Shown here: positions 56,990-63,906 of the stretch, piece by piece
How positions within the stretch are numbered: position 1 is the stretch's first letter
Layout of the letters: each line of letters begins with the position of its first letter
Origin: Chloroflexota bacterium
GTDB taxonomy: Bacteria; Chloroflexota; Limnocylindria; P2-11E
Length of the DNA stretch: 64,000 bases
Reading direction: 5' to 3'
Assembly (NCBI GenBank): GCA_005881885.1
Contig: VBDX01000130.1
Location: forward strand, 1,882-65,881
Notes under the pieces: generated by a model
What the model was told of the DNA's origin: nothing
What the model saw: the letters and a program-made list of their open reading frames with translations, nothing else
Database searches by the model: none
Made by a program: the position numbers and the translations under genes

Positions 56990-57060
56990 GGCGACGTAGC
57001 CAAGTGGTAAGGCAGAGGTCTGCAAAACCTTCATCGCGGGTTCGATTCCCGCCGTCGCCT
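56990..57060 (+). tRNA. tRNA-Cys (GCA)
   Basis: GGCGACG acceptor stem, GCCA/GGCA D arm, GAGGT-CTGCAAA-ACCTT anticodon arm with GCA, GCGGG-TTCGATT-CCCGC T arm, CGTCGCC acceptor 3' strand. CCA is not encoded. Confidence 0.85.
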
Positions 57061-57280
57061 CAGATTCGAGGAAATCGCGGTCCCGCGAGGCTGCAAGCCA
57101 TAGATTCTGCAGATCTTTGTCGTGGCAGCGAATCCTTTTGCCGAAGAAACTTTGTTGCCGAGACACGGGTCCGCCCGCCAAAGGCAAGGGTCTGCAGGAC
57201 AAAGGTCTGCGCGGGCTGGCTTCACGACAGCGCAGCGCTGGTAGATGCGACCTCCGCGTGGGCTGACTGTGAATTCGCGC

Positions 57281-58294
57281 CTAGTCGCGCGGTAAGCTCT
57301 CGACGATCCCCGACTCCAGGTAAGTCGCATACCCGATCACGACTGGAGGCTTGGCGTCGATCCAGCTCACCGACTCGAGGATCACATCCTCCTCGGCGAG
57401 GAGCGCTGATGTTCGGGCATCGAATATCAAAACGTGTCGCCTCTTCACCCCCGTGTATGTGGACGTCTTCGCCACTGCGACACCCTGCCGGCCCGCGCGA
57501 TCGTGCACCTGACCGACCAGTTCGACACCGGGGATGCCCGCCGCGACCTTGTAAAGGGCTGCTCTCACCTGGGGCGGAGCGGTCTGTTCCCTCAGAAGAT
57601 CGCCAATGACGACGAACATCTCGTCGTAGAGGGGTGGGTCCGCGCGCTGTGCGCGTTCACGAATCACAGTCGCGAGCGCACTCGGATCGGTCGGGAGCCG
57701 CGATAGGTCTTCGAAGCTCAGCCCCTGCGCGCCGAAGTCTTGGTTTATTGCCCGTCCAAGGGGAGGGGAGCCAGCCGCCAGCCACGCAGCGCGTGAGCGC
57801 TCGCTGAGGAAGACCATCTCACCAGCGGTCTCTCGGATTCGGCCGGAGCCATCTGGCGCGATCCACATCGTCCTCATCTTCGGAACCAGCGCAGCGATCA
57901 ACTCGCCGCCTTGCGCGCCCATCATGCTCAGATACATCGAGTCGGTCTTCGTGTAGCGGTAACCGGGCGTAGTGGCGGGCACCGGGGCTGGCTGCAGGAC
58001 CGCAGCCCTGGCGAGATCGTTCAAGACAGTCGCCGCTCCGGCCGCTCCCTGGTCCCGACCTAGCCAGGGCAATCCGGCCACGAGGATGATGGCCGCGAGA
58101 ACCACAACTGCGCCGATGCGGAGCGTCGCAGGGCGGCTAACGTGAAGTGGGCCGATAACGAACGTTCTTCTACTGAGGCGCGGCGACGCGACGGCGGCGC
58201 GGATGGCAGGCCAGAGATCCATGTCGGCCGGGACCGCCTCATTCGCTTCTGCCTCAAGGACTTCACGAATGAGCCTCGATCGATGTGCCATCAC
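57281..58294 (-). CDS. putative anti-sigma factor / membrane protein partner of ECF sigma
   Basis: 55-aa cytoplasmic N-domain, one TM helix (IGAVVVLAAIILVAG), and a ~250-aa extracytoplasmic domain. It lies 16 bp downstream of the ECF sigma gene. Confidence 0.6.
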   Translation of the reverse strand: MMAHRSRLIREVLEAEANEAVPADMDLWPAIRAAVASPRLSRRTFVIGPLHVSRPATLRIGAVVVLAAIILVAGLPWLGRDQGAAGAATVLNDLARAAVLQPAPVPATTPGYRYTKTDSMYLSMMGAQGGELIAALVPKMRTMWIAPDGSGRIRETAGEMVFLSERSRAAWLAAGSPPLGRAINQDFGAQGLSFEDLSRLPTDPSALATVIRERAQRADPPLYDEMFVVIGDLLREQTAPPQVRAALYKVAAGIPGVELVGQVHDRAGRQGVAVAKTSTYTGVKRRHVLIFDARTSALLAEEDVILESVSWIDAKPPVVIGYATYLESGIVESLPRD

Positions 58295-58310
58295 GGGACC
58301 ACTTCCTTTC

Positions 58311-58901
58311 TCAGCGCGTACCAGTGAGCAGCGCGCGCAGGCGCGATCGACCGTCGTGAAGGCGCCGCTTCACCGTCCCAAGAGGGCTCGACAACTCATC
58401 GGCGATCTCTGGCCCGCTGAGGCCGACGAAGTAATGAAGGACGACAGCCGAGCGCTGCCGCGGCGTCAGACTTTCGATGGCGTCCTGGACCTGATGGCGC
58501 AGCTCTGCGAACTCGGCCTGGGCGTCGGGTTCCGGGTCGGGACTCGTGAGGAGTTCCCCAAAAGTGGGACCGTTGGGCGTCCAATGGCTGTTCAACGACA
58601 CCTGACGCGCGCGCCGGTCCGCCGCCTTCAACGCGTCGTTCACGACCGCTCGCAGGAACCATGGGGCGAAAGGGCGCTCGGCGTGGAATTGCTGGATCCT
58701 CTCGTAACAGCGCAAGAAGGCGTCGCACACGATGTCCTCCGCCAGCTGACGGTCGCGAACGATCAGATACGCCGCTCGCGTCGCTTGCAGCTGGTACTGA
58801 CCCACGAGTGTTTCGAGCCCGCCGATGTCGCCACGCCGAAGCCGCTCGATTGCGTGCCTTTCGTCGGTCGGCGGCCCGGCGCCTTGCGGCATCGCAGTCA
58901 C
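58311..58901 (-). CDS. ECF-type RNA polymerase sigma-70 factor
   Basis: Sigma region 2 (LIVRDRQLAEDIVCDAFLRCYERI) and region 4 (LTPRQRSAVVLHYFVGLSGPEIADEL). Confidence 0.85.
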   Translation of the reverse strand: MTAMPQGAGPPTDERHAIERLRRGDIGGLETLVGQYQLQATRAAYLIVRDRQLAEDIVCDAFLRCYERIQQFHAERPFAPWFLRAVVNDALKAADRRARQVSLNSHWTPNGPTFGELLTSPDPEPDAQAEFAELRHQVQDAIESLTPRQRSAVVLHYFVGLSGPEIADELSSPLGTVKRRLHDGRSRLRALLTGTR

Positions 58902-59042
58902 TATCCGCCAGCGGCCTCAAAGGTTCGGGTCCGGCTTGGGACTCGAGACGTTTCGGCAAGCGACCGCGTGCGTAAAGCGGCCCGTGGCTCGTGTTGTCAT
59001 GGGCTCGGCGAGACGGGGAACCCCGCGCCGGCCTCCGATGTA

Positions 59043-61767: not shown

Positions 61768-62193
61768 GTGGGACGGGTCCGGTCGCTCGCGCTGGCGGGC
61801 ACTCTTCTTCTCGCACCAGCGTGCGCGGCGACAGGTCCGGCTCACGCCGCGTCAGCAGTCCCGAGCGCGGAGCCCTCGCGCTCGGCCACCGTGCCGCCGT
61901 CTCCCGCGAGCGCCAGCCCGAGCGCGACGTTGCCCGACCGGATCGCGACCGTCTCGCTGGCCGAGCACTTCTTCGACCCGGCGCTGCTAACGGTAAAGGT
62001 GGGTACGACGGTGACCTGGCGGAACGTCGGGCAGCAGGTGCACGACGTCAACGCCCGCGACGGGTCCTTCCACTCTTCGCTCCTCGGTCCGGGCGGCACC
62101 TTCTCGTACACCTTCACGGCGCCAGGGCGCTATCCGTATTTCTGCGTGCCACACGAAGGCGACGGAATGATCGGTGAGGTCGACGTGCAGTAG
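61768..62193 (+). CDS. cupredoxin (plastocyanin/pseudoazurin-like blue copper protein), lipoprotein
   Basis: GTG start with signal/lipobox LLLAPAC. Type-1 Cu ligands H (QQVHDV), C, H, M in YFCVPHEGDGMIGEV. Confidence 0.75.
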   Translation: MGRVRSLALAGTLLLAPACAATGPAHAASAVPSAEPSRSATVPPSPASASPSATLPDRIATVSLAEHFFDPALLTVKVGTTVTWRNVGQQVHDVNARDGSFHSSLLGPGGTFSYTFTAPGRYPYFCVPHEGDGMIGEVDVQ

Positions 62194-62244
62194 CCCGTAT
62201 CCAAGTCCGAGCTCGCGTGGTGCCGACGACCGCCGCGAGTCCGT

Positions 62245-63573
62245 TCAAGCAATCACGGTCCGGCGAGCGATCCAGCGCGCCCCAGTAAGCGCGGCGAGCG
62301 CTGCGGCTGCGGTAAGCAGCGCGGCGGCCGGCAGCGACACGATGAGACCAACACATGCAACGATCCCGTACCACGAGAAGACCGGCGAAGCGATGCGCTT
62401 GGTCTTTGGCAGCTGGAGCGCGGCAAAGTGCGTGACGAGATACCACACGAGCATGAACGCGCTCGCCACCTCGATGAGCGAGCGCAGGTCGAAGAAGAGG
62501 ACCAGTGCCGCGCTCAGGATGCCGAGCGCAGCCACGGAGCGGTGCGGCGTCCGGAACCGCTCGTGCACCGCAGCGAGAAACCGCGGAAGCTCGCGAGCTT
62601 TCGCCATCGCGAGGGCAACCCGCGAGGCTGTCAGCAGGATGCCCAATAGGTCCCCGAGCGCGGCGACGACCGCGGCCGCCAGGACCGGCCAGAAGAGCCA
62701 ATCCGTCGCCCTCTTGGCCGCGGAGAGCAGCGGCGTGTCGTCGCGACCGAGCTCGTCAGCGCCGAGGACGCCCAGGGTAATCGCCGCGACAGGCAGGAAG
62801 ACCGCGGCGGCGATGGCGACCCCGCCGACGATGCTGAGCGGGATCGTCCGCCTCGGATCCTTGATCTCGCTGGCCATGATCGCCGTGCGCATGAACCCGT
62901 CCCAGGACCAGAAGAAGATCGCCGCTCCGGCAAGCACGCCGAGCACTCCCTTGTCGCCGAGGAGCGGGCCGAGCTGTGCTGGGTCGATCGCCTGTGCCGC
63001 GCCACCGGCGTAGACGGCGAGTAGGCCGACGAGGGCGGTGAGCAAGCCGATCACCAGCTTCGAGGTGAGCTCGATGCCGAAGACGTTGAGGCCGGTGATG
63101 GCGAGCACGGCGAGGAAGGCGACGAGGTGCACCGGCAGACCCGCGATGACCTGGCCGAGGTAGGTCGTGAGCGCGAGTGCGACCACGCTCACTGAGACGA
63201 GGGCCTTGCCGAGGTAGCCGCAGCCGGCGATAAAGCCGATCGTGTCGTGATCGAAGGCGCGCGCCCAAGTGAAGGCGCCTCCTTCTTCCGGGAAGTTCAC
63301 CCCCAGCTGCGCCGCGCTGATGCCGGTCGCGAGCGCGACCGTGCCGCCAAGAGCGATCGCGAGAAGGATCCCCGTTCCGGCGACGTTCGTCGCCGCGCCG
63401 AACGCGGCGAAAATCCCGGTGCCGACGATCATCCCCGCGGTGAAGAGCGTTGCGCCCAGGGGCGCGAGCTCCCGCCTCAGCCCGCCACTGCTCCGGCTCA
63501 CCGAAGCCGCAAGAGCTGAGCGCTGCCGCCCCGAACGACATCGAAACTTCTCGACGCTATTACCCGTAACCAA
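62245..63573 (-). CDS. APC-family amino acid permease
   Basis: 12 TM helices with APC-type signature segments. 442 aa. Confidence 0.8.
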   Translation of the reverse strand: MVTGNSVEKFRCRSGRQRSALAASVSRSSGGLRRELAPLGATLFTAGMIVGTGIFAAFGAATNVAGTGILLAIALGGTVALATGISAAQLGVNFPEEGGAFTWARAFDHDTIGFIAGCGYLGKALVSVSVVALALTTYLGQVIAGLPVHLVAFLAVLAITGLNVFGIELTSKLVIGLLTALVGLLAVYAGGAAQAIDPAQLGPLLGDKGVLGVLAGAAIFFWSWDGFMRTAIMASEIKDPRRTIPLSIVGGVAIAAAVFLPVAAITLGVLGADELGRDDTPLLSAAKRATDWLFWPVLAAAVVAALGDLLGILLTASRVALAMAKARELPRFLAAVHERFRTPHRSVAALGILSAALVLFFDLRSLIEVASAFMLVWYLVTHFAALQLPKTKRIASPVFSWYGIVACVGLIVSLPAAALLTAAAALAALTGARWIARRTVIA

Positions 63574-63863
63574 GCGTGCACCGTCGAGCGTTGTGATCGG
63601 CGCGATTTACCGATGAATCTCATGCTTGGTACCTGGGCGGCCCCTCGATCGCGGCGCTCTTCTTTGCGGTCTGGCGACGGTCCCATGAAGGTACGTGCTT
63701 GGCCATACGGGCTCGCTCGTCAAGCGCGTCGCCTCTTGCCCATTGCGCTTTTTTGGAGCGCGAGGCAAAGAGTCTGCGCTGCAGGAGGTGGTCAGTCAGA
63801 GGACACGTTTCATCATTTTCCTGGCTTTCTCAAGTGTCCGCTCTCGAATCGGGCCAGCGGTCC

Positions 63864-63906
63864 GCAAAACCTTCATCGCGGGTTCGATTCCCGCCGTCGC
63901 CTCAGA
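63864..63906 (+). repeat. 43-nt exact direct repeat of the tRNA-Cys 3' half (att-like remnant)
   Basis: GCAAAACCTTCATCGCGGGTTCGATTCCCGCCGTCGCCTCAGA is identical to 57022..57064. No 5' tRNA half precedes it. Confidence 0.75.

Follow-up and report, generated by a model that had tools for sequence, protein, structure and literature searches.

Probable decayed remains of integrative elements downstream of a tRNA-Cys gene in a Limnocylindria genome

Introduction

Tandem genomic islands that lie downstream of one small-RNA gene and are bounded by direct repeats of the 3' end of that gene have been described for ssrA of Dehalococcoides (McMurdie et al. 2011, PMC3146451), where they are hypervariable between strains and where many have no integration module and were proposed to be either cis-mobilizable or fixed. 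These islands, which belong to the same phylum, are the closest analogue of the locus analysed here. It lies in a stretch of 64,000 nucleotides (nt) from a Chloroflexota bacterium of the class Limnocylindria (GenBank assembly GCA_005881885.1, contig VBDX01000130.1, forward-strand positions 1,882 to 65,881), called the window below, and consists of an intact tRNA-Cys(GCA) gene followed by a gene-bearing segment, islet A (57065-63863), at the far end of which the 3' part of the tRNA gene is repeated. We present evidence that islet A is the fused and immobilised remains of one or more integrative elements, composite and decayed. Coordinates are window positions, or window-equivalent positions beyond 64000; the contigs and proteins used for comparison carry L and P numbers respectively.

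The Dehalococcoides islands differ from this locus in their target and enzyme. They use the T-loop of the tmRNA gene, a 20-bp repeat and the serine integrase DsiB, whereas here the target is the tRNA-Cys anticodon loop, the repeat is 43 nt long, and the enzyme is a tyrosine integrase with paired arm repeats, in the class Limnocylindria. The anatomy also resembles that of the Islander islands (Williams 2002; PMC4383910), which lie at target sites of tyrosine integrases and have a regenerated tRNA at one end and, at the other, a displaced 3' fragment that points the same way, with an identity block that runs from the anticodon loop. In that collection 2083 of 3919 mapped islands are anticodon-centred, and tandem arrays are recorded 125 times for two or more islands and four times for three or more (PMC4383910). 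However, Islander requires an integrase gene in each island, while every unit seen here has lost it and islet A keeps only a relic, so that this array would be filtered out by the algorithm.

Two further systems bear on how such units may come about. The accretion-deletion model for ICESt1 and the cis-mobilizable elements (CIMEs) (Pavlovic et al. 2004, cited in PMC3146451), as it is represented in the citing paper, has tandem accretion followed by deletion of the recombination and transfer modules, leaving att-flanked, integrase-less cargo. Islet A fits this definition of a CIME, since it is att-flanked and encodes no recombination or transfer functions; however, no functional partner integrative and conjugative element (ICE) is seen beside the islets here, and mobilisation in trans is putative. 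In the tRNA-proximal islands and tycheposons of Prochlorococcus (bioRxiv 10.1101/2020.12.28.424599), successive integrations at one tRNA push older elements inward, and partial tRNAs, fragmented integrases and niche-type cargo are scattered through the island. These islands differ in phylum and in their integrase and replication modules, and their circular intermediates have been shown, while none was recovered here. Our full-text literature search returned no paper that mentions both Limnocylindria and integrases. To our knowledge, the Limnocylindria are abundant soil Chloroflexota that are known only from metagenome-assembled genomes (MAGs).

Results

The repeat and its target gene

The intact tRNA-Cys(GCA) gene (56990-57060/61, plus strand; called by ARAGORN and by Rfam RF00005, 71.1 bits) is the only tRNA gene of the window, and its 72 nt are 100% identical in the relatives L012, L013, L018, L019 and L031. 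The anticodon loop CTGCAAA (57020-57026) is held by the stem halves GAGGT (57015-57019) and ACCTT (57027-57031). From the first anticodon base to 4 nt beyond the 3' end of the tRNA, that is over the last 39-40 nt of the tRNA and the following 3-4 bases, the sequence (57022-57064, plus strand, copy 1 of the identity block or att core) recurs without a mismatch and in the same orientation at 63864-63906. The preliminary description of the window had reported this exact 43-nt repeat together with weaker similarity beyond it. Our repeat search confirmed both and gave an ungapped match of 91 nt at 82% identity (57013-57103 versus 63855-63945); within 56000-64000 it detected no further repeat of similar length.

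The second copy belongs to a displaced 3' fragment of tRNA-Cys (fragment 1, 63855-63906, plus strand), in which an anticodon-arm-like GCGGT-CCGCAAA-ACCTT (63857-63873) leads into the exact block. On the 5' side of this block fragment 1 is merely similar to the gene (GCGGT-CCGCAAA versus GAGGT-CTGCAAA), and further upstream we found no convincing acceptor arm, D arm or similarity. ARAGORN and Rfam call no tRNA at fragment 1, and the Rfam scan of 56500-64000 returned nothing besides tRNA-Cys. The start of the exact block is the usual anticodon-loop crossover position for tyrosine integrases, a canonical sublocation, and both the third core copy (fragment 2, described below) and a tRNA-Cys fragment in L012 begin at the 5' strand of the anticodon stem. 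The repeat has the classical anticodon-centred att layout, with the anticodon stem as imperfect inverted core arms and a 7-nt overlap, and a 5' stem half that is similar without being identical is what is expected of such a core around the anticodon loop. The intact tRNA-Cys is the regenerated target gene on the attL side, and fragment 1 holds the core of attR.

Both junctions of islet A recur in other assemblies. The junction with the tRNA is crossed by L001, L002, L006 and L083 and that with fragment 1 by L007 and L083, and these five independent metagenome contigs, obtained from different samples with different assemblers, match the junctions at 98.8-99.9% identity. Since independent soil metagenome contigs reproduce both junctions, the structure is not an assembly artefact.

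An integrase relic and its family

Islet A includes a stretch of 660 bp that had been regarded as merely non-coding. When the integrase protein of L013 was searched against the window it matched 60780-60854 on the minus strand, and the translation of this part, R*VGKYEGSERQEFPTAGLREILYR, aligns with the C-terminus of the integrase family, RYIGKYDESELKEFPTAGLRELLAR. A stop codon stands at the position aligned with the tyrosine of the C-terminal RY motif of the family, which by alignment we take to be the catalytic tyrosine. The relic is 78% identical to the L013 integrase gene over 88 nt (E 3e-16) and 75-79% identical in nucleotides to the integrase 3' ends of five more family members (L077-L082), and its high-scoring segment pair (HSP) with protein P0121 has 68% amino acid (aa) identity across the 25 C-terminal residues. 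A second, colinear tblastx HSP at 60954-60998 carries the match to about position 60998, so that about 75 C-terminal codons (~220 nt) of the gene survive as a pseudogene relic (60780-60998, minus strand; tblastn, blastn and tblastx), while the 5' ~770 nt are gone.

A non-coding relic lies beside it at 60610-60701 and is 79% identical (blastn E 8e-15) to L013 1529-1619, a segment located ~470 nt upstream of the integrase gene in that contig. Relative to the integrase relic, this piece of the window is inverted, and it may represent a regulatory sequence or a small RNA belonging to the element. Judged by these similarities, the 660-bp stretch is the wreck of an L013-like element. The earlier statement that the islet has no integrase therefore holds for an intact gene, and the open reading frames of the islet gave no other Phage_integrase match in Pfam, but the 3' relic had been missed.

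The intact counterpart in L013 is a tyrosine integrase of 344 aa (Pfam Phage_integrase, 1e-12), located 82 nt after tRNA-Cys and convergent with it. Its family has 27 homologues in the protein collection, and in all six of the contexts recovered (L013, L077/L078/L079, L080, L081/L082) the integrase gene ends 75-100 nt from a tRNA-Cys(GCA) gene with which it is convergent. The L013/P0121 family of tRNA-Cys-specific tyrosine integrase elements of Limnocylindria is defined in the present analysis. One of its members, L077 (positions 1-11205; NCBI WNFI01520798.1), ends in a tRNA-Cys integrase adjoining tRNA-Cys and carries genes with VirB4/TraC-like, TrbL, type IV secretion system (T4SS) pilin and CHAP domains and a Gp49/helix-turn-helix pair. 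It is ICE-like in view of the VirB4/TraC-like, TrbL, T4SS-pilin and CHAP genes, and may be a conjugative element from an uncultured soil bacterium. A Replic_Relax gene is present in L080, and the cargo of L081 and L082 is small. In IMG/VR no relatives of the integrase family occur.

Arm repeats next to the core copies

The sequence after the tRNA gene (57065-57280, plus strand) resembles a P' arm. Over 220 nt it shares 77% identity with the sequence that flanks tRNA-Cys in L014. It contains a degenerate pseudo-core hairpin (~57100-57118) and two direct 10-nt repeats, CAAGGGTCTG (57185-57194) and CAAAGGTCTG (57200-57209), which are spaced 15 nt from start to start. GGTCTGC motifs at this place had been read as degenerate anticodon-arm fragments. 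They are not tRNA debris; they match the paired repeat CARRGGTCTG-N5-CARRRGTCTG found between tRNA-Cys and the integrase stop codon in L013, L077/78 and L081, with a three-copy variant in L080, and this match makes the repeats at 57185-57209 candidate P'-arm sites. In the islet A flank no integrase gene follows the pair, unlike in the intact elements, and the stop codon of the next gene is 71 nt away.

A paired repeat of the CARRGGTCTG type follows all three core copies of the source genome. Scanning with at most one mismatch per copy gave six hits window-wide, and a close match to the consensus is confined to the pairs that follow the tRNA and fragment 1. The flank behind fragment 1, which is the P'-arm-like start of the next islet (63907-64000, plus strand), shares 85-87% identity with the sequences next to tRNA-Cys in L005 and L014 and contains a perfect pseudo-core hairpin, AGAGGTC-GATTA-GACCTCT (63942-63960); its paired repeats lie at ~64038-64062, outside the window. 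On the other side of the core, a motif scan identified CAAAGAGTCTG (63766-63776, plus strand), 95 nt upstream of the core loop, as a candidate P-arm binding motif, and L012 has the motif CAGAAGTCTG at the same ~95-nt distance from its own tRNA-Cys fragment. Their conservation and position suggest that the CARRGGTCTG repeats and the P-side motif are candidate arm-type binding sites of the integrase.

A tandem array beyond the window

Contig L007, which has a 100% match to the permease of islet A, allowed us to follow the locus to window-equivalent 66123. In L007 fragment 1 is followed by a P'-like flank, a BrnT/BrnA type II toxin-antitoxin locus (L007 1381-1946, window-equivalent 64178-64743), a gene of 175 aa, fragment 2, a P'-type flank and a PD40-like gene. 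Fragment 2 (~65356-65404), ~1.5 kb past fragment 1, begins at the 5' stem and is identical at 48 of 49 positions, with one mismatch. The P'-type flank after it shares 84-86% identity with those of L013 and L081, which carry an integrase. The BrnT/BrnA block between fragments 1 and 2 is called islet B; a gene starts 45 nt from fragment 2, so that its P arm has been lost. Islet A does not stand alone: fragment 2 and the BrnTA islet past the window make it the first unit of a tandem array, and as shown below it is itself bipartite.

No tRNA was called in L007 by ARAGORN or Rfam, so that the second complete tRNA gene once considered possible just outside the window is not there, and an integrase looked for past nt 64000 was not found in intact form up to window-equivalent 66123. 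The PD40-like gene after fragment 2 is cut by the end of the contig; neither homologues nor related JGI loci were detected for it. The 7-aa sequence RSLLRGA behind fragment 2, possibly the last few codons of a second integrase relic, was discarded as too short to count. Genes resembling BrnA lie close to tRNA-Cys in L019 and L056 as well.

Comparison with relatives and strains

Relatives were found by searching the DUF1800 protein encoded upstream of the tRNA, with one genome taken per species, and this search assigned the window to Candidatus Limnocylindria. The DUF1800 gene is kept next to tRNA-Cys in seven species-level relatives (L012, L013, L014, L015, L018, L019 and L031), and none of the seven has an islet-A gene downstream of tRNA-Cys in the 0.2-10 kb available per relative, which is the outcome that the preliminary description had proposed to look for. 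Their downstream regions have nothing in common except the tRNA and short arm-like flanks. The tRNA is followed by the integrase in L013, by a DUF4386 gene, a second tRNA fragment and an ammonium transporter in L012, by an amidase and an RraA-like gene in L019, by a zinc dehydrogenase and a subtilase in L018, and by major facilitator superfamily (MFS), redoxin and BlaR/BlaI-type genes in L031. The L012 segment (8777-9797 of JBBPIQ010000003.1) forms a 0.9-kb integrase-less islet around the DUF4386 gene, bounded by a tRNA-Cys 3' fragment with three mismatches.

Variation was also found at the level of strains. L005 is 99.6% identical to the window upstream and diverges 15 nt past the repeat, where its new flank is 85% like the flank to the right of fragment 1; L003 and L004 end inside tRNA-Cys. 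The differing downstream content of the relatives and the L005 junction together mark the 3' side of tRNA-Cys as a hotspot of turnover.

The 5' side of tRNA-Cys likewise varies among relatives. The 75 nt directly upstream of the gene (56915-56989) are 83-88% conserved in L012, L018, L019, L031 and L080 and are probably a tRNA promoter or leader. In L080 a block of this type abuts a rhomboid gene directly, from which it follows that the DUF1800-DUF1501 block (~52.3-56.8 kb of the window) is absent there. The Limnocylindria-type DUF1800/tRNA-Cys contigs L013, L035, L060 and L068 are filed under MAGs of Bathyarchaeia, Saccharimonadales, Sulfotelmatobacter and Acidiferrales, which is probably the result of mis-binning.

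Gene content and composition of islet A

The gene nearest to the tRNA encodes a membrane protein of the CU044_5270 family (57281-58294, minus strand; NCBIfam NF038083, 146 bits with a cutoff of 100) that has no Pfam match. It lies downstream of the gene for an ECF-type sigma-70 factor (58311-58901, minus strand; Pfam Sigma70_r2 and Sigma70_r4_2, NCBIfam sigma70-ECF). With the CU044_5270 match and nothing in Pfam, it is a positional anti-sigma candidate. Next comes a divergent beta-propeller protein (~59070-60389, plus strand) with weak PD40/YncE-type repeat matches, probably a lipoprotein, which is 440 aa long as called in L001. Beyond the integrase relic are a 3-keto-disaccharide hydrolase or DUF1080-type secreted protein (61053-61802, minus strand; Pfam PF06439, 3keto-disac_hyd), a small cupredoxin of the plastocyanin/halocyanin type (61930-62193, plus strand; Pfam Copper-bind and NCBIfam; 87 aa as called in L001 and L083) and a permease of the APC family for amino acids or polyamines (62245-63501, minus strand; 418 aa; Pfam AA_permease_2 and homologues), to which P0001 is 100% identical. 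Pfam thus bears out the ECF sigma, beta-propeller, DUF1080, cupredoxin and APC permease assignments made earlier, and the anti-sigma assignment follows from position only. No phage domains were found in the islet genes with Pfam or NCBIfam. In L001 the DUF1080 gene seems to have a 98-bp insertion (1781-1878, versus window 61411/61412), but this holds 10 N and was set aside as a scaffolding artefact and not a real polymorphism.

A comparison of composition with the flanks, also proposed earlier, set the islet apart only in part. Its GC content of 0.655 is the minimum among all 6.8-kb windows of the remaining sequence (mean 0.677, standard deviation 0.010). At third codon positions the GC content (GC3) is 0.73-0.75 in the genes on the ECF sigma side, with 0.73 for the CU044_5270-family gene, atypical for the genome, and ~0.75 for the beta-propeller gene, versus 0.856 +/- 0.037 in 43 other genes. 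In the right module it is typical of the genome, at 0.82 for the DUF1080 gene and 0.84 for the permease gene. Islet A is therefore compositionally bipartite, and the integrase relic sits exactly between the two halves. Homologues of the DUF1080, cupredoxin and, in part, permease genes with 70-80% identity occur in the Limnocylindria contigs L008 and L059 in ordinary contexts with no tRNA nearby. Taken together, the bipartite composition, the homologues in ordinary contexts and the position of the relic at the boundary argue for a composite origin, and this points to at least two acquisitions. The DUF1080 and cupredoxin genes are adjacent in three Limnocylindria genomes (window 61053-62193; L008 5760-6829; L059 45-982), sharing a strand in L008 and L059 and divergently arranged in the window, and may be a conserved functional pair.

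Discussion

The repeat, the integrase relic, the arm repeats and the relatives support the earlier suggestion of site-specific integration into tRNA-Cys that left a decayed element. In our judgement the locus probably arose by serial tyrosine-integrase integration at the anticodon loop of tRNA-Cys, tandem accretion and integrase deletion, leaving att-flanked cargo. One or more elements would have entered tRNA-Cys by recombination centred on the anticodon loop, the incoming attP being made of the tRNA-Cys sequence from the anticodon arm to the 3' end and of flanking arms with CARRGGTCTG repeats. Such recombination would regenerate the tRNA at the left (attL) and displace its old 3' part to the right (attR), and repeated events would produce the tandem array, in the order tRNA, islet A, fragment 1, BrnTA islet B, fragment 2 and beyond. 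The integrase genes would later have been lost through deletions and rearrangements, and what is left of them in islet A would be the ~220-nt integrase 3' end and the inverted non-coding piece. The remaining cargo would be an ECF sigma module whose codon composition is atypical, together with a DUF1080-cupredoxin-permease module typical of the lineage. We infer this order of events, and the binding of the repeats by the integrase, from the arrangement of the locus and from its relatives. A prophage was also considered and dropped, given that the islet has no phage structural or replication genes and that the integrase family is without IMG/VR relatives.

Several observations weigh against serial integration and decay. 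The relic is convergent with tRNA-Cys, as in the intact elements, but its distance is 3.7 kb instead of less than 100 nt, and a tRNA fragment could not be detected next to it; when a degenerate fragment was sought in 60390-60790, the alignment score was no better than with shuffled sequence. A distant relic without a fragment does not fit a simple layout of one element with one integrase, so that rearrangements have to be assumed. The 66 kb available contain no intact integrase, excisionase or transfer gene, and the far end of the array was not reached. Junctions of an empty site (attB) or of a circle (attP) came neither from the metagenome scan nor from the contigs. JGI metagenomes were scanned for the exact pattern of attR, or of an empty attB, with a right flank of the window type; there were 0 hits, an uninformative outcome because a perfect match of 69 nt was required. 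L083, in which a circular attP junction was sought, runs colinear with the window. Finally, the right-hand cargo need not be foreign, in view of its 70-80% identical homologues in ordinary chromosomal contexts.

We also considered whether islet A might still be mobile, as a CIME-like cassette. Its intact att sites would then be acted on in trans by a tRNA-Cys integrase, either one from another place in the genome or that of a visiting ICE or integrative and mobilizable element (IME). This would be compatible with serial integration and decay and would add present-day activity to it, the array being a slowly exchanging cassette store; on balance we think it rather unlikely. The attR core is perfect over 43 of 43 positions, and the paired P' repeats and the P motif spaced at 95 nt are intact despite the destroyed integrase. 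Islets that have no integrase and end at a tRNA-Cys fragment are found repeatedly (islet A, islet B, L012), the junction differs in a strain with more than 99.5% identity, the lineage has ICE-like and IME-like elements that carry the cognate integrase family, and 15 Dehalococcoides ssrA islands without integration modules, proposed to be cis-mobilizable, offer a precedent (PMC3146451). However, perfect conservation of 43 nt is also expected of a recent event, no excised or empty-site junction was recovered and no intact integrase occurs in the 66 kb available, islet B has no P arm, and the L005 flank, being merely 85% identical to the flank to the right of fragment 1, is not simply what excision of islet A would leave.

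The other two explanations do without any integrase. Recombinase-independent duplication of tRNA-Cys, by slippage or unequal crossing-over, with decay of the 5' half of the copy and native genes in between, had been put forward as an alternative, and it would account for gapped similarity over ~150 nt beyond the 3' end of the tRNA, for the faint CAAGTG match that a MAFFT alignment shows further to the 5' side, and for a DUF1080, cupredoxin and permease set that is lineage-typical in composition and homologues. It does not account for the abrupt change, located exactly in the anticodon loop, between 43/43 identity and near-random sequence, for flanks that are homologous to the arms of integrase-bearing elements beyond the resident locus, for the different flank type of fragment 2, for a relic of the tRNA-Cys-specific integrase family inside the islet, or for the absence of the islet genes from this site in related species, and we regard it as very improbable. 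Least credible of all, to the point of being negligible, is a chimeric contig joined via the shared 43 nt. The contigs L003 and L004 do break inside the tRNA, and one relative's contig is filed under an archaeal MAG, but the tRNA side and the fragment side are each spanned by the near-identical contigs from several samples and assemblers described above.

Conceptually, the locus repeats what is known from the Islander islands, the Dehalococcoides ssrA islands and the Prochlorococcus tRNA islands, here in a little-studied lineage. It defines a tRNA-Cys-specific tyrosine integrase family together with its probable core and arm sites, and so provides a concrete att/int pair that can be tested as a genetic tool. 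As contigs break at tRNA-Cys and the islets carry niche genes, the locus is also useful for the curation of MAGs. A wider proposal, about which we are more doubtful still than about a mobile islet A, is that the tRNA-Cys locus of Limnocylindria is a cassette store in which integrase-less blocks (ECF sigma, transport/redox, toxin-antitoxin and DUF4386), each with core and arm repeats, are exchanged in trans by the tyrosine integrase family carried on separate ICEs or IMEs. If true, this would be a tRNA-anchored, integron-like shuffling of accessory genes in an abundant uncultured soil lineage. The locus is a hypervariable hotspot, at which accessory genes turn over even between strains that are more than 99.5% identical.

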